From IMG/VR virus record IMGVR_UViG_3300001528_000621, positions 123,849-187,848 of that record: a DNA stretch of 64,000 nt; one strand, given 5' to 3'. Shown here piece by piece: positions 5,274 to 40,500 of the stretch; position 1 is the stretch's first letter; each line of letters starts with the position of its first letter. The position numbers and the translations under genes are program-made. The DNA is from a virus (Duplodnaviria; Caudoviricetes). The notes below the pieces were generated by a model. It saw only the letters and a program-made list of their open reading frames with translations. It was not told where the DNA came from and ran no database searches.

Positions 5274-5280
5274 TATTTAT
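5274..5280 (+). promoter_or_regulatory. Putative late promoter TATTTAT
   Basis: Recurrent intergenic motif, 16 nt before ATG 5297. Confidence 0.65.
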
Positions 5281-19131: not shown

Positions 19132-20225
19132 TGAGCGTTTATAAGGGATTAAATAGGTCCGACGTCTTTTTGACAGACTATATCTCAAGAAAAAAGTGGA
19201 TAGCGTCCGGATCAAATCTAGAAGAACTGGGCTTGCGCCTTTTACAGGGAGTGTCCAGTTCTCGTCCCTATTACACTGTAGACGAAGATATAAAAGAATT
19301 TAGGCCGTACACAGGTACAGTCGGTATAACTAGCTCTTATACAGAAGGTAAATATAACAGAAAGCTTCTTTTTGGAAGCATTTATGAGCAGTTCTACAGT
19401 GGATCTCTTGAAGATGGGACATTTTATGGAGATCGAAACTTAAGCTTACAAACAACCCTAACTGTACCTGGTTCTAGAAGACTAATTACAAGTTCTTTTA
19501 GAGATACAAAACAAGAAACTTGGATACCCGGGGATCAGAGAGAAGAAGATAATGTAATAATCATGATTCTTTCTATTCCAAAAGAGGTGTTCGGAAATGC
19601 TATAACACCGGGATCTTTTAAGGTTAACTTGGATAAAGATGTTTGGACCTACGTTGAGGATGATTATGTAGCTAACGAACACGGAAGTATCTGCGATGAA
19701 GGATACCCGGAAGGTGTGTACACTCGACCTAGCAATCATTGGGTAGATCCATATTTTGAAGATTTACATCAAGCTGGAGCTTACGATTATGAGGGTGTTT
19801 TGATTGTAGATGGGTTTGTTGGAGAATGGCATCAGCCAGAGGAATACAAATACCCAACACCAATTCAGGTACAAGCGAACGTTGTAGGAGATATTATATA
19901 TAACCAGGGTCTTGTAATCTTTACAAATCCTTTTGTTCGATTCTTATTTGAAAATTGGGATGCAGAGACATTCGAATGGGAAGGAAGTAGGGACATATAC
20001 ACAAAGCACATAGTTTGTAAAGCTAGGGACATAGACTTCAACAAGACCTTTAATCCAACAGCTACAGAAGAGTTACAGAATACAGAAGGGTTTACTCCAT
20101 ACATAACAGCTGTAGGTCTCTATAACAATCGGGGAGATCTTCTTGCTGTTGCAAAACTAAGTAAACCTATTAAGAAAGCTCTGGATACAGAGATGACGTT
20201 TGATATTCAAATCGATTTAGGATAA
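19131..20225 (+). CDS. Conserved virion/baseplate protein, paralogue of 18052-19131
   Basis: C-terminal FNKTFNP..ITAVGLYNNRGDLLAVAKLSKP. Confidence 0.75.
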   Translation: MSVYKGLNRSDVFLTDYISRKKWIASGSNLEELGLRLLQGVSSSRPYYTVDEDIKEFRPYTGTVGITSSYTEGKYNRKLLFGSIYEQFYSGSLEDGTFYGDRNLSLQTTLTVPGSRRLITSSFRDTKQETWIPGDQREEDNVIIMILSIPKEVFGNAITPGSFKVNLDKDVWTYVEDDYVANEHGSICDEGYPEGVYTRPSNHWVDPYFEDLHQAGAYDYEGVLIVDGFVGEWHQPEEYKYPTPIQVQANVVGDIIYNQGLVIFTNPFVRFLFENWDAETFEWEGSRDIYTKHIVCKARDIDFNKTFNPTATEELQNTEGFTPYITAVGLYNNRGDLLAVAKLSKPIKKALDTEMTFDIQIDLG

Positions 20226-21304
20226 TGAGTACGATAACAGATTGTGCATATTGGAGATATTTAGGGGAGAATGATGTACCCAAAGTAGAAGGTTCAATCA
20301 AACACATTGATCCTTCTCAACTCGACGAAGGAGTAGTTCCTCTAACAGAAGAAGAGTACGAATCAGGTTCTAAATCTACACCTAAGGTTTTGACAAGATC
20401 TCAGAAAGGTCAAGCCCTTACTCACCTTGAGATGGATTTTAACCTTGCTTCTCTTTTTCATAAACTTAATACATCTAGTGTATCTAGTTCTTTCTCAGAG
20501 GATGAGTACAGTGAGGACAATGATGTCTATTTTGAGAGACGTAAGCCTACTCGAGAGGAAGAAAAAGCAGGGTTGTTTGCTACATTTTCCTATGCTCCTA
20601 TAACAAATGATGGACGAACCCTTATTCAGAATGGATTCCAGACTATTAAAGTACAACATACTACCGATGAAATAAGGTATAAGCTTTCTAATGAGAGAAT
20701 TCCGGGAACTTTAGATATTGAAGAAGACTTTAGGGTCACGGGGAGTGCGTTTGTAGGAAATAACCTATACGTTACAGGAAATCTTGACGTACAGAATGAC
20801 ACCGGTACCAGGACCTTAAATGTAGAGCAATCTGCTAGCATTGAACAGACTCTTCGAGTAAAGGGCACAGCTTCCTTTGATAGGGATCTTACCGTAGAAG
20901 GAAACCTCTACGTTAAGGGTTTAATTTTTGGCGATCTTTCTCAGAAAGGCTATAATAGTCTTGAAAATCCAGGATATGCTGCTAAGTATACCAGGTTTGG
21001 AACTCAAGATACAGGAAGCCAGTCTGATTTTAGATTAAAGAAAGATTGTCGGGAGATTGAGAATGCTCTTGAAGCTGTAGAGCATATATCGGGTTACAGG
21101 TTTGAATGGGATTCTAAAGCTGAAAAATCTGGATCAGATATTGGTGTCATTGCACAGGAAGTTAAGCCTTACGTTCCTGAAGCTGTTTCAACTGGGGAAG
21201 ATGGCTATTTAAGGGTGGATTACGTAAAACTAATTCCTATTCTTATTAACGCTATTCACGAATTACGATGTCAAGTAACAGAGCTTCAGCAAAAACAGAA
21301 GTAG
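20225..21304 (+). CDS. Tail fibre/spike protein with C-terminal Peptidase S74 intramolecular chaperone
   Basis: SDFRLKKD..IENAL..ISGYRFEW..IGVIAQEV..PEAV..VDYVKLIPILINAIHEL. Confidence 0.85.
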   Translation: MSTITDCAYWRYLGENDVPKVEGSIKHIDPSQLDEGVVPLTEEEYESGSKSTPKVLTRSQKGQALTHLEMDFNLASLFHKLNTSSVSSSFSEDEYSEDNDVYFERRKPTREEEKAGLFATFSYAPITNDGRTLIQNGFQTIKVQHTTDEIRYKLSNERIPGTLDIEEDFRVTGSAFVGNNLYVTGNLDVQNDTGTRTLNVEQSASIEQTLRVKGTASFDRDLTVEGNLYVKGLIFGDLSQKGYNSLENPGYAAKYTRFGTQDTGSQSDFRLKKDCREIENALEAVEHISGYRFEWDSKAEKSGSDIGVIAQEVKPYVPEAVSTGEDGYLRVDYVKLIPILINAIHELRCQVTELQQKQK

Positions 21305-21747
21305 AACCTTGGGTATATCAAGGGCGTCCCATGGGGAGACTTGAAGACTTTCCTGAAGGAACATATGGATTCATTTATGAAATTACCTATAAGGAGACCA
21401 ATCAAAAGTATATCGGCAAAAAACAACTTTTAAGCTATCACAAAAAACCTACTAAAATATTTAATGAAAAAACAAAGCGTTGGAACAAATCTTGGGAAAT
21501 TCTTACGACAGAGTCTAATTGGCAAGATTATTTTGGAAGTAACAGAGAAATCGTAGACCTAGTAAAGAAAGAAGGAAAAGATAAGTTTAAAAGAGAAATA
21601 ATTTACCTATGTCCAGATAAAAAATTGCTCACATTCTACGAACTAGCATTTCAATGTAAGAGAGACGTATTAACAGATCCAGATTACATAAACAGTAATA
21701 TTTTAGGAAAGTTTTTTAGATCTGATTGGAAAAAAGAGTCTGAATAA
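21268..21747 (+). CDS. GIY-YIG (Seg-like) endonuclease
   Basis: YGFIYEIT..QKYIGKK..ESNWQDYFGS..FKREI..E...YINSNI. Confidence 0.75.
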   Translation: MSSNRASAKTEVEPWVYQGRPMGRLEDFPEGTYGFIYEITYKETNQKYIGKKQLLSYHKKPTKIFNEKTKRWNKSWEILTTESNWQDYFGSNREIVDLVKKEGKDKFKREIIYLCPDKKLLTFYELAFQCKRDVLTDPDYINSNILGKFFRSDWKKESE

Positions 21748-21762
21748 TCAGGCTCTTTTCTT
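21732..21762 (+). terminator. Intrinsic terminator
   Basis: GAGTCTGA-ATAA-TCAGGCTC followed by TTTTCTT. Confidence 0.7.
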
Positions 21763-21810: not shown

Positions 21811-22752
21811 ATGGAAGAAAATTTTTTCTTGGTAGGTGCTCTAGAGAATATTCTAGGTAAGAGTAAAAAGACAGCTAGAGGAAATAGATCATTTCATTGT
21901 CCGTTTTGCAATCATAGAAAACCTAAACTTGAAATAAAGGTTGTAGATTCCCCAGACGGTTCCTATCCTTGGCAATGTTGGGTTTGTGGAACAAAAGGTA
22001 GGACAATACAGAGTCTTCTTCGTCACTTAAATCTATCAGGTCCAGAAGCTAGAGAGATTCTTCAATATGTGCGAAAGAGCGGAGATCAAGAAGAGAAGCA
22101 GGTAGTTCCAAAAGCTTTAAGACTTCCAGAAGAATTTGAACCTCTAGAACTAGCTCCAAAGACATCTATATATGCTAATAGGGTTAGAAATTATCTGCAT
22201 GGTAGAGGATTGACAGATATAGATTTTATTCGGTATGGAATAGGCTATTGTGTCACAGGAAAGTACGAGGATCACATAATTATTCCTAGCTACAGTGAAA
22301 ATAATGTTCTAAATTATTTTGTAGCTAGAAACATAAATCCGAGAGCATACAGGCACTACACAAATCCAGAAGCAAAGAAAGATGAGATTATTTGTTTCGA
22401 AAATCTTATAAATTTTGACCAACCTCTTATACTCTGCGAAGGAGTGTTTGATGCTATGTCATTGAGACGCAATGCAGTACCTTTACTGGGTCAAAATATC
22501 TCATCAGCTCTAATGAAGAGAATCATAACATCTTCATGTCCGGACATCTACATCTGCCTCGATCGGGATGCCCAAAAGAGAGCTCTTAAGCATTGTGAGA
22601 CATTCTTAAACATGGGGAAGAGAGTCTTCTTTGTAGTTCCTCCTAAAAAAGATTCATCTGAAACTGGATTCGAACTTATGACTAGAGTATTACAAACAGC
22701 AGAAGAACTTACATTTAGTTCTCTTATAGAGTACAAACTTAACTTAATATGA
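21811..22752 (+). CDS. DNA primase (Zn finger plus TOPRIM)
   Basis: CPFCNH..CWVC; YLHGRG; LCEGVFDA; CLDRDA. Confidence 0.9.
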   Translation: MEENFFLVGALENILGKSKKTARGNRSFHCPFCNHRKPKLEIKVVDSPDGSYPWQCWVCGTKGRTIQSLLRHLNLSGPEAREILQYVRKSGDQEEKQVVPKALRLPEEFEPLELAPKTSIYANRVRNYLHGRGLTDIDFIRYGIGYCVTGKYEDHIIIPSYSENNVLNYFVARNINPRAYRHYTNPEAKKDEIICFENLINFDQPLILCEGVFDAMSLRRNAVPLLGQNISSALMKRIITSSCPDIYICLDRDAQKRALKHCETFLNMGKRVFFVVPPKKDSSETGFELMTRVLQTAEELTFSSLIEYKLNLI

Positions 22753-23558
22753 TTGAAGAAGGAATTAACATTAACGAAAAGGAAAGCTTTTTTAAGAAAA
22801 ATAACGGAATAACGGTCGAGAGGGAAAATAAATCTTTAAAGAGAATAGATTTTTGTGACCGTCGCGTCTATGAGAGAGAATCTGGAGTTTATTACCCTTC
22901 TGTAACATCAATCTTATCCGCGTACCCGACCTCAACTTTCTTTTTAGATTGGGTTAAGGATACAGGTCACAATGCAGACATTATTCGTGACAAAGCTGCT
23001 CGAGAAGGTACTCAGGTTCATGAAGGAATAGAAAAGCTTTTAAAGGGAGAGAAGTTGGAGTGGGTAGATGAATATGGAAATGCTAAATACAACCTTGCAG
23101 TCTGGAACATGCTACTTAAGTTTCAGGACTTCTACAATCTCGTTAAACCTAAAACACTAGCTTCAGAACTGTTCCTTTACTCAGATAAGTACAGGTTTGC
23201 AGGAACGACCGATTATCTTTGTCGGGTTGAAGAAGAGAAATGGCTTATTGACTTTAAGACAAGCAACCATGTTGGAGGAAGTTACAACCTGCAACTCAGT
23301 GCTTATGGAAAAGCTTTAGAGGAACAAAGAGGAATTAAAGCTGATCGTCATGCTGTTCTTTGGTTAAAAGCTCAAACCAGGTCTCAAAAGTTTGACGCAA
23401 AGAAAGGAATTGTACAGGGACAAGGATGGCAGCTCATTTTTGATCCAGATCCTGAAAAATCTTTTACGGTGTTTGAGCACGTTCATGAAATTTTCAAAGT
23501 TCTGAATCCTAAGATTGAACCCTACACCAGAAGCTATCCTGTAGAAATATCGCTATAA
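22749..23558 (+). CDS. PD-(D/E)XK exonuclease
   Basis: YPSVTSIL, REGTQVH, AGTTD..LIDFKTS..QLSAY. Confidence 0.85.
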   Translation: MIEEGININEKESFFKKNNGITVERENKSLKRIDFCDRRVYERESGVYYPSVTSILSAYPTSTFFLDWVKDTGHNADIIRDKAAREGTQVHEGIEKLLKGEKLEWVDEYGNAKYNLAVWNMLLKFQDFYNLVKPKTLASELFLYSDKYRFAGTTDYLCRVEEEKWLIDFKTSNHVGGSYNLQLSAYGKALEEQRGIKADRHAVLWLKAQTRSQKFDAKKGIVQGQGWQLIFDPDPEKSFTVFEHVHEIFKVLNPKIEPYTRSYPVEISL

Positions 23559-23563
23559 ATTTC

Positions 23564-23570
23564 TATTTAT
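23564..23570 (+). promoter_or_regulatory. Putative late promoter TATTTAT
   Basis: Intergenic, ahead of the nucleotidyltransferase genes. Confidence 0.55.
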
Positions 23571-23622: not shown

Positions 23623-24540
23623 ATGGGAGGAAGAGTTTTTGACGGCTCAAAGCCGATAAAGAAAGAAGATATTAAGCCTACTCTCTCTAGGTTTATCCAA
23701 GAGTTCTCTAGGGTTTTTCCTAAAGCTAAAGGATATTTTGAAGGTCTTCGAGTTTTGGGATCTGCAGGGAAGAAACCGGAAAGTGGAGATATAGACCTAT
23801 GTTTGGACGAGAAAGCTTTTAAAAATATAAAAGATTGGGGTCTTTCTGAGAAGGACGTCAACGAATACTATCTTAAGTTTAAAGCTAGAGCTAGAACAGC
23901 TACAAAGCAGCAAATCATGAAGAGGGCCATAATTGTAGCTATTGGAGATAAGCTCGAACTTGAATCTTCACACATCAACATAGACACTAAAGGAGCTGGA
24001 AATGGAACATTGTTCTGCCAATTTCCTCAGTACAACTCTAAAGGGGATATGCTTGCACAGCAGGTTCAAATCGATTTAAATATTGGAAATATTGATTGGC
24101 TAAGCTTTGCATATTATTCAGACTCCTATGAAGGTAACGTCAAGGGTCTTCACAGAACGCAACTAGTGCTTTCTTTATTTTTAGTTGCGGGATATTCTTT
24201 TTCTCACAACTACGGGGTAAAGAACAAAGAAACAGGAGAGATTGTAGCCCAAACACCTCAGCAAGCTATAGGTATTCTATCAAATGCATATAATGCTGAA
24301 TTTTCTCCTGAAATCTTGAACAATTATTTTAAACTTCAAGAGTTTCTTAAAAAGCACTTAGATGAGGCTGATTTGCATGAAGTTTGGGATGCATACTTGA
24401 GTATTCTGGATCGAACAAGGTGCGATATTCCGAACGATCTTCAAGAATATTGGATTGAAAATCAAGATAGGTTAGGTCTTACAGGAAAATTTCTTCCAAA
24501 GGAATCAAAACTTTACATGTTTAGGGAGGATAACGACTAA
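23623..24540 (+). CDS. Pol-beta superfamily nucleotidyltransferase
   Basis: LGSAGKKPESGDIDL (GS-x-DxD) with distal VQIDL. Confidence 0.75.
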   Translation: MGGRVFDGSKPIKKEDIKPTLSRFIQEFSRVFPKAKGYFEGLRVLGSAGKKPESGDIDLCLDEKAFKNIKDWGLSEKDVNEYYLKFKARARTATKQQIMKRAIIVAIGDKLELESSHINIDTKGAGNGTLFCQFPQYNSKGDMLAQQVQIDLNIGNIDWLSFAYYSDSYEGNVKGLHRTQLVLSLFLVAGYSFSHNYGVKNKETGEIVAQTPQQAIGILSNAYNAEFSPEILNNYFKLQEFLKKHLDEADLHEVWDAYLSILDRTRCDIPNDLQEYWIENQDRLGLTGKFLPKESKLYMFREDND

Positions 24541-26690
24541 TGAGCGGAAGTATAGGAGGAGATCGAATTCCTCACAATGCTGTACAAAAGACAGTAGAAA
24601 AATACATTAAGAATATACTTAGTGGATTTGAAGGTTTTAAATCTGCTAAGATTACAGGAAGTTACAACACAGGGCAGAAAAAAGACCACGGAGATTTGGA
24701 TTTGTGCGTCTATGTTGAAGCTAGAAATAGGGATCTTCGTCAAGTTAAGAAAGAGCTTAAAGATTACCTAGAATCCTCAAAATATACATACCCGTTCAGG
24801 TCTGGACGAAATAAGGGTAAAAAAGCTCAAATGTACGGAACAGTTGTAACTTGTCAAGTTCCTATAGAGGGGTTTGAAGGTCTTTTAGTCCAGGTGGACA
24901 ACATGGTTGTTCTTTCTGAAAAAGAGCAGGAATACCAGCAGAATTTTTTGGATGCAGATGCTGCAAAACAAGGACTTTTAATGGGACTTGTACGGGTAAT
25001 CATGACTGAAGAAAATCCTGAAACTGTTCTTAAAAGAGTAGGTATCAAGAAGGTTCCTGAACTTGGAAAAAATCAAGAGCTTGAATTTGTTCTCTCTAGT
25101 TCTGGACTTTCATTGAGAAGAGTAACTCTTGAAAACTTTAAGGAGGTTGACAGAGAAGAGCTCTGGAGATCTACAGACTGGCAGGACGTCGTGAAATTAC
25201 TTAAGAACTATGACCTTTCTCAGGATTTTGATCATCTTCTTGCGGATGTCAAGGATAAGATTAAAGATGCTCGATCTAGAAGACGTATAATCGGTATTAT
25301 GAAATCTATGATTAACGTTGGAGTGGGAGAGAAAGGAACACCTAAAGGAGATGCTAAAGAGCGAGCAATTCAAGCTGCTTCTAATTCTCTAGAAACGTTG
25401 GACGAGGTTGCTGAAGAAAATAAGAAAGGTGTGATCGGACTCTACGGAGGCGGATTTAAGCCTCCACATAAAGGTCATTACTCTGTTGTACAGAAACTTC
25501 TAAACAGGGTAGACAGGATTATAATCTTCATAGGTAGTGGAAATAGGGAAGGAATACCTATCAACCAGGACCAGTCCAAAGAAATTTGGAAAATATATAT
25601 AGATGCATCCGGATGGTCAGATAGAGTAGAAATTCGAGAAGTTCAATCTCCTGTAGGAGAAATTTATAAGATTATTCAGAATCCGGATCTTCAAGAGTAC
25701 CAATTCAGAATTGCAAAATCTGGGGAAGGTTCTGAAGAAGATAAAAAATGGAAATGGTTCATTAAGAATCAAGACAAATTTCCGAACGTAAAACTTATTA
25801 CGCTTCCGGTTATTCTCGATAAGGATAGTGAAAAGCTTTCTGCTTCAGATCTCAGAGCTTCTGAAACTAAAATCAAAAAAGGAAACTGGATTCCTCAAAA
25901 TGTACTTTCAACCGAGGATATTTCAAAGGTAATAGACATTGCACTAGAACAAGTAAAGGTGGAAATATTAAAAGAAGAACTTAAAGCGGGTAAGCTTGAT
26001 GCTAAGACTTTCGAAAACATCGTAAAGCAAGGTCTTCAGGATGCTGAAAGCAGTGCTGATAATATAGGTGAAGGTTTCTATGGACCTCCATCAACCCCGA
26101 GAGCTGCTATTTCGTCCGAAGATAGAGAAAAGCTTGGGCACATATATGAAGAGCTTAGAGAAAAATATGAAAGTCAAGGGATTAATGTAATCTTTAATGG
26201 AAATAATATCTTACTTAAGGTTCTCTATCCTGGGGACATAGCTGGAATTGGAAACGACACACCGGGTAATATTAGAGAAAGCGAAGAAGATGCTACTCGA
26301 GAAGAAGAGTTTGATTATCTTCCTTACATTGTATCTTACTTAAAGTTTCTTAAGGAGGAGAGGGGAATTTCAATTGAACCTCTTCCGGAAATTATCTTAA
26401 ATAAAACTAGTCAAAAAGGTCAAGGAATCTTAGCTAAGACTGGTGAGTACAATCCTGAAGATAAGGTCATAACTGTATACACAAAAGATAGAGCACCAAA
26501 AGATGTGCTTCGGTCGGTAGCGCACGAGTACCAACATGCATACCAAGATGTTACGGGAAAGTTAAAAGGTTTTTCAGGACAGAAAACAACAGAAAATGAA
26601 CCTCTATCTGTTCTTGAAGAAGAGGCTTATCGGGACGGAAATATGAATTTTAGAGCTTGGCTTGAATCAATAGGAGCGTATGAAGGATAG
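24540..26690 (+). CDS. Fusion of Pol-beta nucleotidyltransferase, HIGH-family (cytidylyl/adenylyl) transferase and zincin metallopeptidase
   Basis: TGSYNTGQKKDHGDLDL and VQVDN; GGGFKPPHKGH..LSASDLR; AHEYQHAYQ..EEEAY. Confidence 0.8.
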   Translation: MSGSIGGDRIPHNAVQKTVEKYIKNILSGFEGFKSAKITGSYNTGQKKDHGDLDLCVYVEARNRDLRQVKKELKDYLESSKYTYPFRSGRNKGKKAQMYGTVVTCQVPIEGFEGLLVQVDNMVVLSEKEQEYQQNFLDADAAKQGLLMGLVRVIMTEENPETVLKRVGIKKVPELGKNQELEFVLSSSGLSLRRVTLENFKEVDREELWRSTDWQDVVKLLKNYDLSQDFDHLLADVKDKIKDARSRRRIIGIMKSMINVGVGEKGTPKGDAKERAIQAASNSLETLDEVAEENKKGVIGLYGGGFKPPHKGHYSVVQKLLNRVDRIIIFIGSGNREGIPINQDQSKEIWKIYIDASGWSDRVEIREVQSPVGEIYKIIQNPDLQEYQFRIAKSGEGSEEDKKWKWFIKNQDKFPNVKLITLPVILDKDSEKLSASDLRASETKIKKGNWIPQNVLSTEDISKVIDIALEQVKVEILKEELKAGKLDAKTFENIVKQGLQDAESSADNIGEGFYGPPSTPRAAISSEDREKLGHIYEELREKYESQGINVIFNGNNILLKVLYPGDIAGIGNDTPGNIRESEEDATREEEFDYLPYIVSYLKFLKEERGISIEPLPEIILNKTSQKGQGILAKTGEYNPEDKVITVYTKDRAPKDVLRSVAHEYQHAYQDVTGKLKGFSGQKTTENEPLSVLEEEAYRDGNMNFRAWLESIGAYEG

Positions 26691-26949
26691 TATATCTATG
26701 GTTTTTCTTCTAGAGCAGAAGGATTTTTTTGAACAACACGAAATTAAGAAAGAAAAAGGGTCTCTTTCAATCGGATTTTCTGAGAAGGAACAAAAGTGGT
26801 ACGGATGGTCCCATAGAGCTATCCAAGGGTTTGGAATTGGGGATAAATTTCGAGAATGCTACCCTTCGGGTACGAAGATAGGTAGAAAATGTAGAACTTT
26901 AGCTGACTGTAAAGAAGCAGCTAAAAAATTTGCAGAATCTGTAAGTTAA
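26680..26949 (+). CDS. Conserved phage hypothetical protein
   Basis: SIGFSEKEQKWYGWSHRAI.GF.IGD..FAESVS. Confidence 0.7.
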   Translation: MKDSISMVFLLEQKDFFEQHEIKKEKGSLSIGFSEKEQKWYGWSHRAIQGFGIGDKFRECYPSGTKIGRKCRTLADCKEAAKKFAESVS

Positions 26950-26953
26950 TTCT

Positions 26954-27535
26954 ATGGACAGTTTATTAAAAAAAGAGTGGAGAGAAGAAGATATCCAGAG
27001 AGTTCGAAACCTAATAACCGGACATTACGGAAAATCTACTCGAGACATTATAGGTTACGGTAAGGTTGAAGAAACTCACTCTGAAGGAGATATTTGGACT
27101 GAAGACGGAAAAACTTGGACCATTAAGGACGGACTTAAGCAGACAGTCTCTAAACTTTCAGAAGTTAGACATACCTTAAGAATGCCCCTAACCTGTCCGA
27201 AATGCGGAAAAGCAATGGCATCTTATCTTGACAAAAAGATGTACCCTATTCACGGTTTTTGCTTTGACTGTGTTTGTAAGATGGAGGATGACCTTAAACG
27301 AGCGGGAATATATCAAGAGTATGAAAAGAGGTTAGTTGAAGGTAATATTCGAAACTTCGTTCAAGACCTTAAAGATAGGATTACGCACATCTCTAAATCT
27401 AAAGTAGAGTATTCAACAGACATTGGAGAGGTTGAAGATTGGGGGGATGTTTCAGATGATCTTATTAAAAGTCTAGATCAATGGGCAGAACTACTAGCAG
27501 AAAAATTAGGTAAACCAGAGGAATCCCAAGGGTAG
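26954..27535 (+). CDS. Zn-ribbon hypothetical protein
   Basis: EGDIWTEDGKTWTIKDG; CPKC..CFDC. Confidence 0.75.
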   Translation: MDSLLKKEWREEDIQRVRNLITGHYGKSTRDIIGYGKVEETHSEGDIWTEDGKTWTIKDGLKQTVSKLSEVRHTLRMPLTCPKCGKAMASYLDKKMYPIHGFCFDCVCKMEDDLKRAGIYQEYEKRLVEGNIRNFVQDLKDRITHISKSKVEYSTDIGEVEDWGDVSDDLIKSLDQWAELLAEKLGKPEESQG

Positions 27536-31711: not shown

Positions 31712-32527
31712 GTGAAGTACTATTTTTACAGAACAACCAATCTGATCAACGGGAAATACTACCAGGGAGTACATCATTCCCTGAATCCTGAAAAAGATCC
31801 GTATTTTGGGTCTGGTCCCGGAATACAGGCTGCTGTAAAAAAGTACGGTCGAGAAAATTTTAAGGTTGAGATACTTCGGGACGATTTTAAAAGTATGAAG
31901 GAAGCCTACGAATACGAAGCTTCCATTATTACTCTCGATTCTTTAGATTCTAGAATTTGCTACAACCAGGTTCCCGGTGGTAAAGGAATTCGAGACGGAG
32001 TCATAACCGTGTCAAAAGGAGAAACAGAAATCAGGATTCACAAAAAACTTCAAACAGGTTATGAAGAGATGGGATGGGTCAGAGGTAGATCTCAAAAAGC
32101 TCGAGAAAATGTTTCAAAGGTACGTAAAGGAAAACCTAGTAAACAAAAAGGAAGATTATACTTACATAGAGGTTATGATGAGGAGATAAGAGTAGAAAAA
32201 GATCAAATTTTACCTTATCTCTCCCAAGGATATGAGCTAGGACACTCACAAGCTAGCAAAGATAAAATAAGCAATGGAAGAAAAGGCTATTTTTGGATTA
32301 ATAACGGAACACAAAGCTTACAAGTAAAAGATCTATCAGAAATACCAGAAGGATTTAAACCGGGCAGACTAAAGGTATCAGAAAACACTAAACAGCTCTT
32401 AAGTCAAGCTGCTAGAGGTAAGAAAGATTCAGAAGAAACAAAAGAACGAAAAAGTAAAGCAAAGAAAGGGAAGTCTTGGGTTCTAGTAAACGGAAAAAGG
32501 GTCTGGACTTCTAAAATAGAAAAATAA
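31712..32527 (+). CDS. Free-standing GIY-YIG (Seg-like) homing endonuclease
   Basis: YFYRTTNLINGKYYQGVH..YFGSG..KKYGRENF..E..YN; C-terminal GW/YxxGR and NUMOD3-like repeats. Confidence 0.88.
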   Translation: MKYYFYRTTNLINGKYYQGVHHSLNPEKDPYFGSGPGIQAAVKKYGRENFKVEILRDDFKSMKEAYEYEASIITLDSLDSRICYNQVPGGKGIRDGVITVSKGETEIRIHKKLQTGYEEMGWVRGRSQKARENVSKVRKGKPSKQKGRLYLHRGYDEEIRVEKDQILPYLSQGYELGHSQASKDKISNGRKGYFWINNGTQSLQVKDLSEIPEGFKPGRLKVSENTKQLLSQAARGKKDSEETKERKSKAKKGKSWVLVNGKRVWTSKIEK

Positions 32528-32532
32528 GTAAT

Positions 32533-33390
32533 ATGGCAGAAAATAAAGCAAACTACAAAGAGTACCTTAAGAGGAAAGGTTGTGTTTCCGCCATACCTAA
32601 GTTGTTCTACATCTTCTACCGAACAGATAACCTAGAGAACGGAAAGTATTACTACGGAGTCCATGCAACAGACAATCTACAGGACGATTACCTGGGTTCG
32701 GGAAAAATACTTAAAAAAGCTATTCAAAAGTACGGAAAAGAAAAATTTAAAAGACAGAATCTCAAATTCTTTAACTCTATGTTAGAAGCTTACGAGTACG
32801 AAGCTCGAATTGTAACCAGGGACTTGGTTGCCGACAGTCTATGCTATAATGTGAAACCGGGAGGATTAGGTGGAATGAAAGGAATGGTTACAGTGCATAA
32901 GAATGGACAATATTGGAAAGTTAGGATTGAAGATTTAGAGAACACATTAAAATTAGATTCAAACATAAGCATAGGTAATAGTCTTCAAGGCAGAGCTTCA
33001 AAACTTAAAGGTAGAAAGCAAAGTGAAGAACATGTGCGAAAAAGGTCAGAAGCTCTTAGAGGTAGGACAGGTCGAAAAGGTATACCTAAGCCGGACGGTT
33101 TTGGAGAAAAAATAAGACGAGCTCGATTAGGTAAAGAAGGAAATACGAAAGATCGAATATCCGTTTGGAAAGATAGGGTTAGACTCTTGATTCAAAAAAG
33201 TGAACTAGATAGATACGAGAAAGAAGATTGGATTAGAACAAACGAATATAGGTGTGTTCGTAGTGTTGAGACAAACGAGTTTTGTGTGGTTTCTCGAAAA
33301 TATTTACAGGCTTTTCTAAGCAAAGGCTTTATGAAAAGCAGGTTTTCGGATTTGAAGGATAATCAAATTAGCTTTAAAGTTATACTGTAA
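32533..33390 (+). CDS. Free-standing GIY-YIG homing endonuclease with a terminase-like N-terminal extension
   Basis: IFYRTDNLENGKYYYGVH..YLGSG..KYGKEKF; NUMOD3-like KGRKQSEEHVRKRSEAL. Confidence 0.88.
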   Translation: MAENKANYKEYLKRKGCVSAIPKLFYIFYRTDNLENGKYYYGVHATDNLQDDYLGSGKILKKAIQKYGKEKFKRQNLKFFNSMLEAYEYEARIVTRDLVADSLCYNVKPGGLGGMKGMVTVHKNGQYWKVRIEDLENTLKLDSNISIGNSLQGRASKLKGRKQSEEHVRKRSEALRGRTGRKGIPKPDGFGEKIRRARLGKEGNTKDRISVWKDRVRLLIQKSELDRYEKEDWIRTNEYRCVRSVETNEFCVVSRKYLQAFLSKGFMKSRFSDLKDNQISFKVIL

Positions 33391-33397
33391 AAAAGTT

Positions 33398-34237
33398 ATG
33401 GAAAATCAAAAAGCTGCAAACTATAAAGAGCTATTAAAAGCTGAGTATATAAAGTGTGTGAAAGATCCTGCGTACTTTATGCGCCGGTATGTATACATAC
33501 AGCATCCGATAAGAGGTCGTATACTCTTTAACTTGTATCCCTTTCAAGAAAAAGTCCTTCATTTGTTTCGAGATTCAAAGAATATTATTGTTCTAAAGTC
33601 TAGACAGCTCGGTATCAGTACTCTTGGAGCTGGCTATGCACTCTGGTTAATGCTTTTTCACTCGGATAAAAACGTGCTTTGCCTTGCTACGACACAGGCT
33701 ACAGCTAGAAACTTGGTTAGGAAGGTCATTTTTGCATACGATGCATTACCGGCCTGGCTTAAAGTCCCGTCAACGTTTAAGAATAAGCTTTCAATGGGTC
33801 TAAAGAATGGATCTAAGATTGAAGCAAAGTCAAGCAACAGTGACGCTGCTCGTTCCGAAGCCGTATCTTTGCTTTTGGTTGACGAAGCAGCATTCATCGA
33901 CAACATTGAAGAGACGTTTGCAGCAGCTCAACAGACACTTGCTACCGGTGGACAAGCAATGCTATTGTCTACTCCTAATGGTATAGGAAATTTTTTCTAT
34001 AATACATGGGTTAAAGCTGAGCTTGGAGAAAACACATTTGTACCGGTTAAGCTTCCGTGGCAAGTCCATCCAGAACGAGATCAAGCTTGGAGAGATAAGC
34101 AAGACTCTGATTTGGGTCCAAGGTTTGCTGGACAAGAGTGCGTAGATGGTGAGACTGAAATTACAGTAAGAGATAAGGATACGGGAGAGGAATTTACGAT
34201 ACCTGTAGAAGAGTTTTACAAGCTTGTTGAGTTCTAA
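33398..34237 (+). CDS. terL: Terminase large subunit, N-terminal ATPase fragment plus split-intein N part
   Basis: LYPFQ, KSRQLGIST (Walker A), LLVDEAAF (Walker B), LSTPNG; ends QE|CVDGETEITV. Confidence 0.95.
   Translation: MENQKAANYKELLKAEYIKCVKDPAYFMRRYVYIQHPIRGRILFNLYPFQEKVLHLFRDSKNIIVLKSRQLGISTLGAGYALWLMLFHSDKNVLCLATTQATARNLVRKVIFAYDALPAWLKVPSTFKNKLSMGLKNGSKIEAKSSNSDAARSEAVSLLLVDEAAFIDNIEETFAAAQQTLATGGQAMLLSTPNGIGNFFYNTWVKAELGENTFVPVKLPWQVHPERDQAWRDKQDSDLGPRFAGQECVDGETEITVRDKDTGEEFTIPVEEFYKLVEF
34139..34234 (+). mobile_element. Split intein N fragment (32 aa)
   Basis: CVDGETEITVRDKDTGEEFTIPVEEFYKLVEF: intein block A plus the IPVEEFY motif, then a stop codon. Confidence 0.9.
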
Positions 34238-35397
34238 TGAGGTACTGTTTTTATGAAACAACGAATCTCGTAAACGGAAAGAAGTATCTAGGTATTCACG
34301 GATCTGAAGATTTTGAAAAAGATACCTACATAGGGTCCGGTACATTACTACAAGAAGCTATACAAAAGTACGGTAGAGAAAACTTTATTCGTAAAGATAT
34401 CAGATATTTCAACAAGCAAAAAGAAGCCAGAGAATTTGAAGCTTTATCTATTACTCCGGAAATTTTACGAAGTTCAAACTATTACAACATAGCTAAAGGG
34501 GGAGGAGGTGGTTCTGTAGGATCTAAACCTTTCTACGAAGGTAAGGTCAGATATCTAGTAGATCCCGAAGCTATAGAAAAATTCAAAGTTCAACATCCGA
34601 ACGCTGTAGAAGGAGTTCCTGAAGAGATAGGAAAAGAGCACAGTAAAAAGATGCTTGGAAGAATTACCGTAAATAACGGAAAAGACCATAAACTCATTTT
34701 ACAGAAAGATCTTCAGAAGTATATAAAAGAGGGTTGGACTATTGGAACGACAGAAGAACTTAACCTTAAGAACAGTAACTCCAAGAAAGGTATAAAGATT
34801 ATGCATCTTGGAGATAGTACTAGACATGTAAGGTTAGAAGATGTAACTGAGTTTCTGAAGAAAGGTTATGAGTTTGGTCCATCTTCTTGGATTTCCGAAC
34901 GAAACGGGAAAAGACACAGAGGCTTAGTTAAGGTTTACAAAGGTGCAGAAATTAGGTTTGTATCTTCAGATAAGGTAGAGGACCATATAAAGCAAGGATA
35001 TTGTACAGGAACTTCTTCAGAGGAGAGAAAAGTTAGAAGTAAAGTTAGTAGAGGAAAGATTTTCATACATAAGGATGATCGAGAAAAGCGAGTTCCTAAA
35101 GAAGACATGGAGTCTTATTTAAGAGAAGGCTGGGAAAGAGGAAGATCTAAGCAAGTTCTTGATCAGTTAAGTATTGTAAATAAAACAACAGCTAAAATAA
35201 GAAAGAAGAGATCTAAAGAAGAAGCTGCAACTAGGAAGGTGATCTATACAAAATCAGAAGAATTTCAGAGATGGTGGAAAGAAAATAGTAAACACTATTC
35301 GAGAATACACTACGCAGTTGGATATTTCTTAAAAGAATTAGGTCTCAGTAAATCTGAATTTCTTCATAAGATGAAAGAAAAAGGTGAGTATGAGTAA
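34237..35397 (+). CDS. GIY-YIG homing endonuclease between the two terL halves
   Basis: YETTNLVNGKKYLGIH..YIGSG..KYGRENF..YYNIAKGG; TAATG coupling to terL-N; overlaps the terL-C start. Confidence 0.9.
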   Translation: MRYCFYETTNLVNGKKYLGIHGSEDFEKDTYIGSGTLLQEAIQKYGRENFIRKDIRYFNKQKEAREFEALSITPEILRSSNYYNIAKGGGGGSVGSKPFYEGKVRYLVDPEAIEKFKVQHPNAVEGVPEEIGKEHSKKMLGRITVNNGKDHKLILQKDLQKYIKEGWTIGTTEELNLKNSNSKKGIKIMHLGDSTRHVRLEDVTEFLKKGYEFGPSSWISERNGKRHRGLVKVYKGAEIRFVSSDKVEDHIKQGYCTGTSSEERKVRSKVSRGKIFIHKDDREKRVPKEDMESYLREGWERGRSKQVLDQLSIVNKTTAKIRKKRSKEEAATRKVIYTKSEEFQRWWKENSKHYSRIHYAVGYFLKELGLSKSEFLHKMKEKGEYE

Positions 35398-35725
35398 CAT
35401 CAACTATAATTTAAGGTACGAGGTTTTAGGTAAGTCCGGCTTTCAAGCTTTTCAGGGAATCCGAAAAGTAGTAAAGTCGTTCTACTATAAGATTACTTTC
35501 GAATCTGGTCAAACCTTAAAAGCTTCTGCTAGACACAGGTTCTTTCTTGAAGATGGAACTGAAATTTTTGCAGAAAAGCTAAAGAAAGATGTAAAGATTC
35601 TAGCTAGAAATGGAAAGTTAGATGTAGTTAGGAAGATAGAAAAGGTCAACGAACCTTGTGTAATGTATGATGTTGTTCAATCAAAAGATCACACATATTA
35701 CACGGGTAACTCATTGAGTCACAAT
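35390..35725 (+). mobile_element. Split intein C fragment (~112 aa)
   Basis: GFQAFQGIRK, block B SARH, block F MYDV..HTYY, terminal SHN followed by Cys+1. Confidence 0.92.
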
Positions 35726-36577
35726 TGCGATTGTAATTTTCTAGCGTCCGGTGATACTGTGTTTGAGTTTGCAGATCTAGAATTCTTCGAAAAGACCCAT
35801 ATGTGTGACCCTATCGAACGAAGAGGAGAAGGAGGAAATTATTGGATTTGGGAAAGACCAGACTATTCGAGATCATACTTATTATCAGCTGACGTTGCTC
35901 GAGGAGATGGAACAGACTATTCAGCTTTTCATGTTTGGGATGTAGAGACATGTGCTCAAGTGGCTGAGTATAAGGGTAGGATGACACCTAAAGATTACGG
36001 TGCTTTTTTAGTTGCAGCTGCTACAGAGTACAACAATGCTCTTCTTGTTTGTGAAAATGCCAACATCGGCTGGGCCTCGGTCGAGGAGATATTAGCTAGA
36101 GGATATCAAAATACATACTACAGTGTATCTGGTGGAGGGACTAAAGTGGAGACAGCTGACAGTTATGCATCTAAAATGGATAAAGGTAAGCTTGTACCGG
36201 GATTTACGACATCTACTAGAACTAGGCCGCTTGTAGTAGCAAAGCTGTACGATTACGTTCATCAGCGTGACTGTATTTTAAGGTCAAAGAGGCTTTTAAC
36301 AGAAATGAGAACGTTTATATGGAAATCTGGCAAGGCTCAGGCTCAGGAAGGATTGAACGACGATGTTGTAATGTCTGCAGGTATAGGTCTCTACGTTAGA
36401 GATACAGCTTTACAGCTTAGACAGCAAGGTCTAGAACTATCTAGAGCTCAACTAACCACATTTGGAGATCTAAATAAGAAAAAACCGGTTGTCTACAGGC
36501 CAAACTACTTTAACAATCCATACGAAGTATCAACCGGTGAGGGTAGGACAGAGGATATTAGCTGGGTTTTAGGCTAA
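35390..36577 (+). CDS. terL: Split-intein C part plus terminase large subunit nuclease fragment
   Basis: ATG 35390 (alternative GTG 35384); SHN|CDCNFLASG, then ADVARGDGTDYS, ENANIG, GLNDDVVMS (RNase H-like nuclease). Confidence 0.95.
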   Translation: MSNINYNLRYEVLGKSGFQAFQGIRKVVKSFYYKITFESGQTLKASARHRFFLEDGTEIFAEKLKKDVKILARNGKLDVVRKIEKVNEPCVMYDVVQSKDHTYYTGNSLSHNCDCNFLASGDTVFEFADLEFFEKTHMCDPIERRGEGGNYWIWERPDYSRSYLLSADVARGDGTDYSAFHVWDVETCAQVAEYKGRMTPKDYGAFLVAAATEYNNALLVCENANIGWASVEEILARGYQNTYYSVSGGGTKVETADSYASKMDKGKLVPGFTTSTRTRPLVVAKLYDYVHQRDCILRSKRLLTEMRTFIWKSGKAQAQEGLNDDVVMSAGIGLYVRDTALQLRQQGLELSRAQLTTFGDLNKKKPVVYRPNYFNNPYEVSTGEGRTEDISWVLG

Positions 36578-36627: not shown

Positions 36628-37533
36628 ATGACAGAACAGGAATTTTTTAAAACACTAAAAGACACTAAGGAGGGTAGAGAGTATCTTGACTTGGTGTCTT
36701 CCTGTTTGTCTAGATCTTTAAGACCGGAACAGGGTTTTGAACTTCACCACATATTCTTAACTTCTTTAGGAGGAAAGAATGTTTCTGAAAATAAAGTAAA
36801 GTTTACTATTTTCGAACACTGTAGAGCACACGCTCTTCTAGCTAAAGCTATTCCTTGCTATAAAACTCTTCAACCTATTACTTACATGTCTCGAGGACAG
36901 GTTACAAAATTGGGTGACCTTGAAAAAGTTACTCTAGAAGAACAGCTTGAATGGTCCAAATTGAGGGAAAAAGCTCTTCATCAACCCAAGTCTCCTGAAC
37001 ATGTAGAGAAAATGAGAAATGCTCTTAAAGGTAGAAAGCTTTCTAAAGAAGTGAGAGCCCACATGGGAGGAGCAGGGAGAGGAAAGAAGTTTATAAACAA
37101 TGGAATAATTCATAAGCGCGTTCTTCCAGAAGATTTGGATGAGTGGTTAACTGAAGGATGGACTTTAGGAAGGACGAAAGAGCTTATGACTAAAATCTCA
37201 GAATCTACTCAAGGCCGTACAAGCAGCTTAAAGGGTAAGATTTGTGTTACCAAAGATGGAAAAGAGCTAAAAATTGATCCTGAAGATCTTCAAAAATACC
37301 TATCAGAGGGATACGAAAAAGGTAGGTGTAAATCTTTTTCTGAAAAACGTTCAAAATTCTTAAAAGGACGCACATCTACAACAAAAGGTAGAAAAAAGAT
37401 ACATAACCTTGAAGGAGTAGAAAAACTCATACCTGAAGAACAGTTACAAGAATATTTATCTAAAGGGTGGATAGAAGGAACATCTCCTCAACACCTTCAA
37501 AACATTTGGAATAAAAAGCATGGCAGAAAATAA
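36628..37533 (+). CDS. Free-standing HNH (Mob-like) homing endonuclease
   Basis: ELHHIFLTSLGGKNVSENKVKFTIFEHCRAH; NUMOD3-like segment; three GW/YxxG repeats. Confidence 0.85.
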   Translation: MTEQEFFKTLKDTKEGREYLDLVSSCLSRSLRPEQGFELHHIFLTSLGGKNVSENKVKFTIFEHCRAHALLAKAIPCYKTLQPITYMSRGQVTKLGDLEKVTLEEQLEWSKLREKALHQPKSPEHVEKMRNALKGRKLSKEVRAHMGGAGRGKKFINNGIIHKRVLPEDLDEWLTEGWTLGRTKELMTKISESTQGRTSSLKGKICVTKDGKELKIDPEDLQKYLSEGYEKGRCKSFSEKRSKFLKGRTSTTKGRKKIHNLEGVEKLIPEEQLQEYLSKGWIEGTSPQHLQNIWNKKHGRK

Positions 37534-40500
37534 TTACAGCTGGTCAGATCCTTCTCTTTTTGCGAGATTAAAGAAGCTTTTTTCTTCTGACGTTATAATA
37601 CGTAACATAGGAGGTAAAGAGTTAAAAGTCTTAGACGTAAACAAGATACAGAGATCTGGAAATTATAGAACAAATTCTCTTGTAGACCGTTTTAGTAGAC
37701 TCTATACCTACAACAGGCAAACACTGTGGAATCCAGCTATTAACTTCCAAACCCTCAGAACTCAGTGTTATGCCGCGTACGAGGCTATGGACACAGATGC
37801 GATTATCTCTTCTGCATTAGATATTCTTGCAGATGAGTGTTTGCTTGTGAATGATAGGGGAGAGATGTTGACTATCAAATCCTCAGATGAGAATATTAAG
37901 AGAGTTCTAGAAAACCTATTCTACGATATTCTTAATATAGAATTCAATCTATGGTCCTGGGTTAGGGGAATGCTTAAGTATGGAGATTTCTTCTTGAAGC
38001 TTGAAATTTCAGAGAAATTCGGAGTTTATAATGTACTTCCTTACTCCGTGTATCATATCTCTAGACAAGAAGGAATAAGCAAAGAAAATCCAACTCAGGT
38101 CGTATTCCAGTTCGATCCAGACGGACTTGCATCTTCTACAGACCCAAATTACGTACCTAAAGACGGACACACTGTAATAACTCTTCAGAACTATGAAGTA
38201 GCTCATTTCAGGTTACTGACGGATACAAACTACCTACCTTACGGTCGATCCTATCTTGAACCTGCTCGAAAGCTGTTCCAGCAGCTAACACTTGCTGAAG
38301 ATGCAGCTTTGATTCATAGAATTATGAGAGCACCGGAGAAAAGAATCTTCTATATCAATGTTGGTCAGATACCACCGAACGAGGTGGAGCAGTTTATGCA
38401 AAAGACTATTAATACGATGAAGAAGACGCCGTATGTTGGAGCCGATGGACAGTACAATCTTAGGTTCAACATGCAGAACATGATGGAGGATTTCTATATT
38501 CCTGTAAGAGGAGGAGATACTTCCACAAAAGTAGAGACAACACCGGGACTTAATTATGACGGTATTACCGATATTAGATATTACCAGGAGAAGCTTTTTG
38601 CAGCGTTAAAAATTCCTAAAGCTTATTTAGGATTTGAAGAATCTTTGTGCGTTGTTCCTGAAACTCAAATCCCACTGTTAAACGGAACTACAAAAACAGT
38701 AGCAGAGCTTATTGAAGACTACGAGAACGGCATTCAAAACTATGTTTATAGTCTTGATGAAAACACTCTACAGGTAGTACCTGGAAAGGTTCAATGGGCT
38801 GGATTTACTCGAAAGCATGCAAACCTTGTTCGTGTCTGGTTAGACAATGAACAGTATCTGGATACAACACCGGATCACCTATTCATGACTAGGGACGGGG
38901 AATGGATAGAAGCTCAAAACCTTACAGAGGGTACCTCATTAATGCCGCTCTATACAGGAACAACTAAATTAGGTTATACAACAGTATATCATCCTGGTTC
39001 TCAAAAATACGAGGAGGTACATAGAATCGTTCCGGAGTATTATGGAGAGATCTCTAAAGGTTCTGGAAAGGTTGTACATCACATAGATTGTAATAAACAT
39101 AATAACTATCCGGAAAATTTAGATTGTTCTATGGATTTTTGGCAGCATAGAGCTTTTCATGCTGCAAGAGCTAAAGATGTCTCTAGAAGGTTGAAAGAGC
39201 AAGGATATTACGAGTCTGAGGTTTGTAAAGAACATGCTCGACGAAACGGTAGACTGGGCGGACAAAAGTCTGCAGAAAAACTCGGTGAGTGGTCTAGAAC
39301 TCATCGTCCCTGGAACTGTATAGAAAGTCGAGACAGATCTTCAGTGGTGTGTCCTGTTTATAGGAAAGAATTTACACCACACTATTACGGTCCTTCCCAA
39401 AAAACTTCTTCAGAAAAAACAAGATTCTGTAGTGTAGACTGTGCAGGACAGTACAGGCATCTTCATCCAGAAGAGTACGGTCTTACTCAAAGTTCAACAA
39501 ATAAGAGAAAGTTTATTGATCTGCAGGAATTTTTCAAGGTAGCTGCTACAGCTAAGAATTTCTACGAGATCATGGAACATTTCAACATAACAAGAAATAC
39601 TTTCAATTCTTTTCTTAAAGATCATGGAATTGATAAGTACGAGCTTGTTTGGGACGTAATGTTAGAAGCTCAGAAGGAGTCTAACTTTATTAGAAATTTC
39701 AAGAAGCGTAGAAACCATAAAGTTGTTCGAGTTGAGATTCTAGAGGAGTGTAGGGACACCTGTGACCTTCGTGTAGAAAATCACCATAATTTTGCAACAG
39801 CAGCTGGTGTGTTCATTCACAACTCCGGTAAAGCTACGCTGTCTGCAGAAGATATACGGTTTGCTAGAACTGTAGAAAGAGTACAGAGAATTGTAGAAGC
39901 AGAGCTTACTAAGATTGCTCTTGTTCATCTATATACGCAGGGATTTACTGGAGAATCTTTAGCAAATTTTGAACTCAAACTTACTACACCTTCTGTTATC
40001 TTTGAACAGGAGAAGATAGCATTACTCAAGGAAAAGGTGGATCTAGCTAACCAGATGTTAGAAACTAAACTATTTCCTTCAGACTACATCTACGAGAATG
40101 TTTTTGGTATTTCTGAGAACGATTACTTGGAAATGAGAGAGCTTGTAAGAGAGGATTCCAAGAGAGCCTTTAGAACTTCTCAGATTGAAAACGAAGGTAA
40201 CGATCCTGCTAAGTCTGGTAAGAGTTACGGAACACCTCATGACCTTGCTTCAATGTACGGTAGAAGGTCGTCACCTGCACCTAAGGGAACAGAGCAAGGT
40301 AAAGTACCTATAAGCTATGAGGAAGATCCTAGACCTCATGCTGATCTTAATCCTCCAGGATCTAATCCAGAGGGTGGAAGACCTAGAATAAGAGCTTCTT
40401 TCAGAGATACTCAAAAAGATCCAGCAGGAGGAGCAGATCCAACAGGAAGAAAAAATATGCACCAACCTTACAAGTCAGATGCTGAGTATGTAATGGAAAG

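Follow-up and report, generated by a model that had tools for sequence, protein, structure and literature searches.

A conserved, virus-specific set of three nucleotidyltransferases and a zincin, encoded beside a Tad6-family gene, as a candidate polyvalent-type counter-defence module

We analyzed a two-gene operon (positions 23623-26690) in a 64,000-nucleotide stretch of the viral record IMGVR_UViG_3300001528_000621, here called the window, which forms the final part of a genome that is complete (187,848 bp) and carries direct terminal repeats. The operon encodes a conserved, virus-specific and undescribed set of three nucleotidyltransferases (NTases) and a zincin. Its first open reading frame (ORF; 23623-24540) encodes P1, a stand-alone PolX-like NTase of 305 aa, and its second (24540-26690) encodes P2, a protein of 716 aa. 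In P2, a second PolX-like palm+thumb domain (residues 1-290; 24540-25409) is followed by a HIGH-family, NMNAT/PPAT-like domain (residues 296-475; 25425-25964) and a minimal zincin domain with HExxH and Glu (residues 520-716; 26097-26687). The adjoining 89-aa ORF (26680-26949), overlooked in the first-pass annotation of the window, belongs to the Tad6 family, and the three genes lie on the + strand, as do all large ORFs of the window. Because relatives carry Tad6 as a fusion to P2, and because of the domain network around it, we link the operon to counter-defence: P1, P2 and the Tad6-like gene may well form a polyvalent-type counter-defence module, a reading to which we give slightly under an even chance. 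The first-pass annotation had proposed a packaged, protease-matured set of nucleotide-transfer enzymes, injected for host takeover or counter-defence. The ORFs, motifs and overlaps all lay where it had placed them, and its interpretation stood in part: the domain calls held and the counter-defence idea was strengthened, whereas the idea of NAD+ salvage was weakened and the case for maturation is weak.

P1 and P2 are translationally coupled, as had been proposed; the P1 stop codon TAA and the P2 start codon ATG share one base (GACTAATGAGC). The predicted NTase motifs were also found, GSAGKKPESGDIDL beginning at residue 46 of P1 (23758) and GSYNTGQKKDHGDLDL at residue 40 of P2 (24657). Both proteins contain the Pol-beta-type core of hG[GS], DxD and a third Asp (D56/D58/D151 in P1, D52/D54/D120 in P2). 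Among 34 diverse P1 homologues, G46, S47, D56, D58, Q149 and D151 were invariant, together with a KGLHRTQ motif. In each of the three domains of P2, the catalytic residues were invariant or nearly so in 120 homologues, with G40, S41, D52, D54 and D120 of the N-terminal domain (P2N) retained in 119-120 of them. The closest cultured relative is Flavobacterium phage vB_FspM_immuto (hereafter immuto), whose homologues are 55.8% (P1) and 37.2% (P2) identical. With tblastn, P2 was found only in immuto, and P1 only in immuto, Atu_ph07 and Phosso; blastn of the operon against cultured phages gave no match. In IMG/VR, 408 contigs encode a P2 relative.

P1 matched no Pfam family above cut-off, and none of its 30 nearest Atlas clusters had a common Pfam family. 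Its own family comprises at least 293 representative clusters (50% identity), which are viral without exception. Aligned by hhalign, P1 and the N-terminal domain of P2 matched with 95.4% probability (E 1.9e-8, 218 columns), and by this profile comparison P1 and the first ~290 aa of P2 are paralogues. The AlphaFold2 model of P2 had a mean predicted local distance difference test score (pLDDT) of 81.5, with low values only in the linkers 287-295, 506-518 and 568-588; in residues 1-290, block values were mostly 87-96. With VIA-align, residues 4-234 were superposed on the palm+thumb core of family X polymerases: pol beta (Z 12.3, 184 residues aligned), TdT (Z 11.7), pol lambda (Z 11.3) and African swine fever virus (ASFV) Pol X (Z 11.0, 163/176 residues, root-mean-square deviation 2.9). 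Foldseek likewise returned pol lambda (E 1.5e-7), and a BFVD search returned giant-virus PolX proteins. Terminal uridylyltransferases and CD-NTases mostly aligned over about 100 palm residues, with Z not above 9.9. These matches, computed on the P2N model and extended to P1 through the hhalign comparison, sharpen the earlier Pol-beta NTase call to a pair of PolX-like palm+thumb paralogues. No 8-kDa or fingers (helix-hairpin-helix) domain was present in either; both open directly with the palm, and the structural matches of P2N begin at model residue 1-9 and at pol beta residue 142. In profile searches of the PDB, the NTase families gave no PolX match at E<=1-5, and Pfam DNA_pol_B_palm reached its cut-off only in the relative P0247 (25.7 bits, cut-off 25), other relatives scoring below it. 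A 2022 review of phage DNA polymerases lists no such PolX-like family among phages (PMC8775771). P1 appears to represent a minimal, PolX-like, virus-only family that is undescribed.

The PolX-like fold also bears on the main rival explanation, in which the operon serves the replication/recombination apparatus by DNA gap filling or end processing. P1 and P2N would then act with the primase and exonuclease, either as minimal PolX polymerases for repair or as terminal transferases, the zincin would remove DNA-protein adducts as Wss1 or SPRTN does, and the HIGH domain would supply a nucleotide cofactor. We consider this possible but doubtful. It agrees with the palm+thumb fold, including the ASFV and giant-virus matches, and with the GS...GDxD and QxD motifs of both domains, which we take to resemble those of PolX enzymes. 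It is harder to reconcile with the missing DNA-binding domains and with the family median pI of 6.0 for P1 and 6.9 for P2N, neither of which is basic. Furthermore, a family A polymerase and an ATP-dependent ligase are encoded elsewhere in the genome, and there is no NAD-dependent ligase to employ an NMNAT-like domain. A role of the PolX-like pair as replicase was ruled out by the phage's own family A polymerase.

Two consecutive paralogous NTases of the pol-beta superfamily could instead add nucleotides stepwise to damaged RNA 3' ends, in repair or tailing of RNA or tRNA against host nucleases of the anticodon or acceptor stem. Such stepwise action by paralogues has a precedent in split CC- and A-adding enzymes, and terminal uridylyltransferases are among the palm-domain matches. 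Moreover, Atu_ph07 gp066, directly 5' of the P1 homologue in that phage, starts with a KxDG-type ligase-like motif (EKLDGS), although a PDB sequence search returned no match that would confirm it. However, PolX surpassed terminal uridylyltransferases and CCA-type enzymes in both aligned length and Z, the head, neck and body domains of CCA enzymes were not detected, and no tRNA genes lie in the 64-kb window. We therefore regard RNA repair as very unlikely.

The HIGH-family motifs named in the first-pass annotation were present in P2, FKPPHKGH at residue 306 (25455) and LSASDLR at residues 433-439. H310, H313, S434 and R439 were invariant or nearly so in the 120 homologues, and the family conserves GGFKPPHxxH and SASxLR, in agreement with the NMNAT motifs GxFxPxHxGH and ISxTxxR. 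Pfam CTP_transf_like (PF01467) matched the domain with 25.6 bits (cut-off 21; 26.2 bits in the genome-wide search). VIA-align of residues 296-474 gave NadM NMNAT (Z 12.3), PPAT (Z 11.5) and Methanocaldococcus jannaschii NMNAT (Z 11.4), so that the family call narrows to an NMNAT/PPAT-like fold. NMNAT, NaMNAT and PPAT fit about equally (Z 11-12.3), and since PPAT matches as well as the others, the fold does not single out NMNAT. The best NCBIfam models were archaeal NMNATs, matched over residues 300-336 only (31.1 bits against a cut-off of 127). The nearest relatives in the Atlas were virus-only cytidylyltransferase-like clusters. A literature search for DUF6267, which recurs in Atlas clusters with HIGH domains, or for 'cytitidyltransferase' found no papers.

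Plain NAD+ salvage, in which P2 would rebuild NAD+ from nicotinamide mononucleotide (NMN) and ATP, for replication or against NADase defences in the way of NARP2 or NARP3, is highly improbable as an account of the operon. The HxGH and SxxxxR motifs, the NMNAT fold (Z 11-12) and the archaeal NMNAT models as best NCBIfam matches speak for it, and phage NAD+ reconstitution pathways are established (PMC13464706). In GenBank, the immuto homologue is labelled 'NMN adenylyltransferase, NadR', which is probably too specific. Against salvage stand the partial match of ~37 N-terminal residues at 31 bits, the equally good fit of PPAT and the virus-only affinity of the domain. In addition, NamPT/Namat (PF04095), PnuC (PF04973) and a second cytidylyltransferase-like domain are absent from the complete 187,848-bp genome, in which the ligase is ATP-dependent and the NAD-dependent LigA was not found; because these partners are missing, a NARP-type role for the HIGH domain is unlikely, and the idea of NAD+ salvage is weakened. 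Nor would salvage explain the obligatory link of the domain to two PolX-like NTases and a zincin. Recycling of NMN for an NAD+-dependent ligase was likewise ruled out, since the phage ligase is ATP-dependent and LigA is lacking.

Structure comparison confirmed the zincin call for the region of HEYQH (residues 662-666; 26523-26537). H662, E663, H666 and E693 were invariant in 120/120 homologues. Residues 520-716, when folded alone, gave a pLDDT of 86.4 and the secondary structure H-E-E...H-E-H-E-E-H(HExxH)-H(E). All 50 of the 50 VIA-align rows were zincin-fold proteins, nearly all of them metallopeptidases, led with middling Z values by Wss1 (7.8), lugdulysin (7.5), SPRTN (7.4) and ArdC (6.7); the top Foldseek match was PprI/IrrE (probability 0.99, E 0.012). 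On the basis of the model, the C-terminal region of P2 is a minimal, metallopeptidase-like gluzincin. Wss1, SPRTN, ArdC and PprI are all DNA-associated, which is a further point for a DNA end-processing module. In immuto, gp088 carries a 190-aa C-terminal extension (residues ~712-907; L001:11134-11721) with a second HExxH-like motif, HEIEH; the extension had no Pfam or PDB sequence match.

The modules are inherited together. P1 was located immediately 5' of P2 in 78/80 fetched IMG/VR loci. Genes for a DNA primase (21811-22752 in the window; PHROG E 1.9e-40) and a PD-(D/E)XK exonuclease (22749-23558; PHROG E 5.9e-44) lay directly upstream of P1-P2 in 73-74/81 related loci, and a zinc-ribbon gene (26954-27535; 193 aa) downstream of P2 in 66/81. 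The conserved block is accordingly primase-exonuclease-P1-P2-(variable)-zinc-ribbon gene, all on the + strand here. Among P1-family proteins we found the module orders HIGH-P1-P2N, ZN-P1-P2N, P1-HIGH-LINK-ZN, P1-P2N-HIGH and P1-P2N, and in Atlas clusters the HIGH domain is accompanied by a pol-beta palm or by DUF6267. All four enzyme modules are thus co-inherited and, in other phages, fused in many orders, and since the same modules are retained through these permutations, we conclude that they form one functional unit and work in one process. The obligatory coupling of P1 to an NMNAT-like enzyme and a zincin in all fusion orders is a Rosetta-stone signal for undescribed chemistry.

P2 relatives range from 669 to 1279 aa and vary mainly in the tail after the zincin. 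Some have tails of 190-560 aa with no known match (those of immuto, L043 and L065 had no PDB sequence match), and others contain an inserted third NTase plus DUF6934. In two of the latter (L059:8001-11462 and L060:3784-7620), a third Pol-beta NTase (NTP_transf_2, residues ~508-567) and DUF6934 stand between the HIGH and zincin domains. Among the BFVD neighbours of P2 are large phage proteins with ParB, SET, amidoligase or LysM annotations. A DNA end-processing module would account for the fixed primase-exonuclease-P1-P2 synteny and for conservation at the level of core genes; one Atlas cluster that resembles P1 in fold (TM 0.69) has PD-(D/E)XK in 93% of its members, which points the same way. 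It leaves unexplained, however, the variable accessory tails and the fusion to Tad6.

The Tad6-family ORF overlaps the P2 stop codon by 11 nt. Its product matched Pfam PF25188 at E 7.3e-22 and 78.4 bits (cut-off 27), over profile positions 46-145 of 145. In 6 of the best 120 P2 homologues (P0008, P0013, P0023, P0025, P0039 and P0051), a Tad6 domain is fused to the P2 C terminus. Other close relatives stop exactly at the P2 end (ESIGAYE-), so the split between P2 and Tad6 is natural and not a frameshift. According to the summary of Yirmiya et al. 2025 in PMC13728456, Tad6 is an inhibitor of type I Thoeris; it is reported there to co-purify with ThsB, whose catalytic site it blocks through a loop. 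This neighbour, and its fusion to P2 in relatives, strengthens the counter-defence idea of the first-pass annotation. In other phages, the Tad6 domain is stand-alone, fused to InPase (L093:5434-6234) or to a 2H (Acb1-like) phosphoesterase (L091:5413-7437), or encoded beside a stand-alone homologue of the P2 zincin (L096:4367-6264); some of the contigs concerned are of jumbo-phage size. The survey of phage-type polyvalent proteins, whose hub is a zincin MPTase, lists InPase and 2H among their domains (Iyer, Burroughs, Anand, de Souza, Aravind 2017, J Bacteriol; PMC5512222). These contexts suggest that Tad6 moves as a module within the same domain network, beside InPase and 2H, and its fusion to P2 ties the chemistry of the operon to NAD+/TIR immunity. 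PADLOC found only weak MNT-like matches.

In a counter-defence module of this type, the three NTases would share a single process of nucleotide transfer. An adenylylated (NAD-like) compound would be made or used by the HIGH domain, and the PolX-like pair would extend a nucleic-acid end or a nucleotide-derived molecule by adding nucleotides. The zincin may cut the polyprotein at an invariant [VLI]-x-E511|G linker, or a host target, and the Tad6 domain is predicted to block the Thoeris TIR protein ThsB. The module would thereby counter immunity based on NAD+ or nucleotide signals, and it may travel in the virion and act as infection starts. An extended form of this mechanism is a virus-specific three-NTase pathway for a nucleotide-derived product (an immune-signal decoy or antagonist, or a protective DNA/RNA end cap), packaged, released by the zincin at E511|G and co-injected with the TIR inhibitor; we hold it to be unlikely.

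Several observations weigh against a counter-defence module. The operon is a core, conserved block right after primase and exonuclease, and P1 is 56% identical to its immuto homologue, as a core gene would be, whereas anti-defence genes are mostly variable accessories. In fold, the NTases come closest to DNA-repair polymerases and the zincin to DNA-linked proteases. The HIGH domain lies below all NMNAT cut-offs, with ~37 N-terminal residues matched. Fusion to Tad6 is confined to a near clade and occurred in 0/80 IMG/VR loci. To these we add the motif upstream of the operon and the purity of one virion preparation, which are considered with expression and delivery below.

The proposed packaging and proteolytic maturation rested on (L/I)xE sites of the T4 gp21 type at domain junctions. 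TLDE (E289), ILKE (E479), NIGE (E511) and NIRE (E580) are all present in P2, and all but ILKE fall within or next to linkers modelled with low confidence. The number of such sites was rejected as evidence, because the 12 observed are close to the 11.5 +/- 3.0 expected from shuffles. E511, in the linker motif I509-G-E511-G-F-Y-G (26064-26084), was invariant in 120/120 homologues, with V, L, I or M at position -2 in 106/120 and G or N as the next residue in 110/120. The family consensus [VLI]-x-E|G-S-S-G-T falls in the disordered segment 506-518 (pLDDT<50), just before the zincin, and E511 marks a candidate proteolytic site. The other three sites were not conserved across the family. A gene for a T4 gp21-type prohead protease (Peptidase_S77; 43162-43746, + strand) is present, with a PF03420 match of 109.4 bits (genome 167019-167522; window 43171-43674). 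Neither P1 nor P2 has a removable N-terminal targeting peptide; their N termini, MGG... and MSG..., are the conserved start of the fold. For gp21-type maturation, the protease gene and the invariant [VLI]-x-E511|G site thus speak in favor, and the unconserved sites and absent targeting peptide against, which leaves it weak. The E511 linker could be cut by the prohead protease or by the zincin of P2 itself.

By analogy with other phages, virion delivery is plausible, though we would put it at somewhat less than an even chance. The P1 homologue of Atu_ph07, gp65 (33.5% identity; family hidden Markov model E 1.5e-29), begins MGGRAFDG...GSGGKKPTSGDID and was detected in virions by mass spectrometry (10 unique peptides, 36.8% coverage); a mass match at 32.16 kDa confirmed its identity in the protein list. 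Those virions were purified with polyethylene glycol only, and the list also contains RecA-like, SSB and RNR proteins, which counts against packaging. A Tad6-like protein, YerA41_059, carries a structural-protein annotation that derives from a particle proteome with 63 members. In Atu_ph07, mass spectrometry of virions detected most proteins of the gp053-gp069 cluster (L085), among them the consecutive ~30-kDa proteins gp55-gp64, and did not detect gp066.

A TATTTAT motif precedes the operon, as noted in the first-pass annotation, at 23564-23570 (+ strand), 59 nt 5' of the P1 ATG. The genome contains 39 forward and 11 reverse copies. Non-coding DNA, which makes up 11% of the genome, holds 26 of the 39 forward copies (binomial p 5e-16). 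The intergenic (C)TATTTAT copies lie mostly 16-60 nt 5' of a start codon and number 26 sites, including 23564 and, for example, window positions 5274, 8603, 17351, 27568, 36603, 52044 and 55541. They were found before tail-tube, tail-fibre-like and adaptor-like genes, and also before NrdD. From its distribution, (C)TATTTAT is probably a promoter element of the phage. Its use as a strictly late promoter was dropped because NrdD is preceded by the same motif; late expression of the operon is for this reason not established, the other point that weighs against a packaged module. No TATTTAT occurs between 23564 and 27568, a span from P1 through the zinc-ribbon gene, and the latter is probably in the same transcription unit. 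Scans for sigma-70 promoters and terminators around the operon gave background levels only.

The gene order around the operon is tail-fibre (20225-21304), SegE-type GIY-YIG (21268-21747; Pfam SegE_GIY-YIG 90.6 bits), primase, exonuclease, P1, P2, the 89-aa gene and the zinc-ribbon gene, followed by several genes without assignment, a terminase split by homing endonucleases and the portal gene. The SegE-like gene and the primase are separated by a strong terminator-like hairpin (21732-21759; 12-bp stem, T-rich tail). The PHROG family of the SegE-like gene is labelled 'NAD synthetase', as is immuto gp100, its counterpart at the same position. This label looks like a propagated misannotation and could falsely suggest an NAD pathway beside the operon. 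GIY-YIG homing endonuclease genes are interleaved with the gene for the terminase large subunit, whose two parts lie at 33398-34237 and 35384-36577 (region 31712-36577). The portal ORF (37520-40663; 1047 aa) has an HNH endonuclease-like insert at residues ~483-650. In the major head protein ORF (46033-47838; 601 aa), the capsid match covers residues 334-583 only, and the N-terminal region of ~330 aa is unexplained. Hypermodification of a hydroxymethyl base was rejected, as the genome has no thymidylate-synthase-like gene.

Compared with known systems, P1 and P2N resemble minimal family X polymerases (ASFV Pol X and the core of pol beta and lambda) in their palm+thumb architecture without N-terminal domains, similar size, catalytic Asp triad and Z values of 11-12.3 over 163-184 residues. 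They differ in lacking a significant PDB sequence match, in their near-neutral pI and in being a duplicated pair that is invariably coupled to a HIGH NTase and a zincin. With the NARP2 NMNAT and the NadR-like Bas30_86 of NARP3, the HIGH domain shares the fold, the HxGH and SxxxxR motifs and a plausible tie to NAD+-targeting immunity; it differs in its score below NMNAT cut-offs and its virus-only clade, in a genome without NamPT, PnuC or a kinase partner. T4 Alt and the internal proteins are late, packaged in the capsid, processed by gp21 and injected. The S77 protease gene, the internal [VLI]-x-E511|G site and the virion association of a distant P1 homologue are points of likeness to them, but P1 and P2 carry no N-terminal capsid-targeting peptide and the sole conserved site is internal. 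The 89-aa product is like Tad6 in its PF25188 match of 78.4 bits; it covers profile positions 46-145 only and here overlaps, or in relatives is fused to, a multi-enzyme protein, and as a family member it is predicted to bind ThsB.

Phage-type polyvalent proteins (PMC5512222) are a further point of comparison for P2. As in these, several unrelated enzymatic domains share one polypeptide with a zincin-like MPTase hub: P2 unites PolX-like, HIGH and zincin domains, and relatives add Tad6, a third NTase with DUF6934, or tails. The architecture varies among relatives, the network includes InPase and 2H, fused to Tad6 elsewhere, and delivery with the invading DNA is predicted for polyvalent proteins. 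Unlike in that survey, where Pol-beta NTases occur only in conjugative elements and are of the minimal four-strand type and HIGH or NMNAT-like domains are not mentioned (PMC5512222), P1 and P2N are PolX-like palm+thumb proteins, the four modules form a fixed set in permuted orders and are not freely assorted, and the P2 gene sits beside primase and exonuclease. The cultured relative immuto (P1 homologue gp089, P2 homologue gp088; host Flavobacterium sp. LMO8) is available for tests. In summary, P2 is best classed as a polyvalent-type protein with a zincin hub and a variable accessory tail, and its domain set is new, as PolX-like and HIGH domains are unlisted for phages in PMC5512222.

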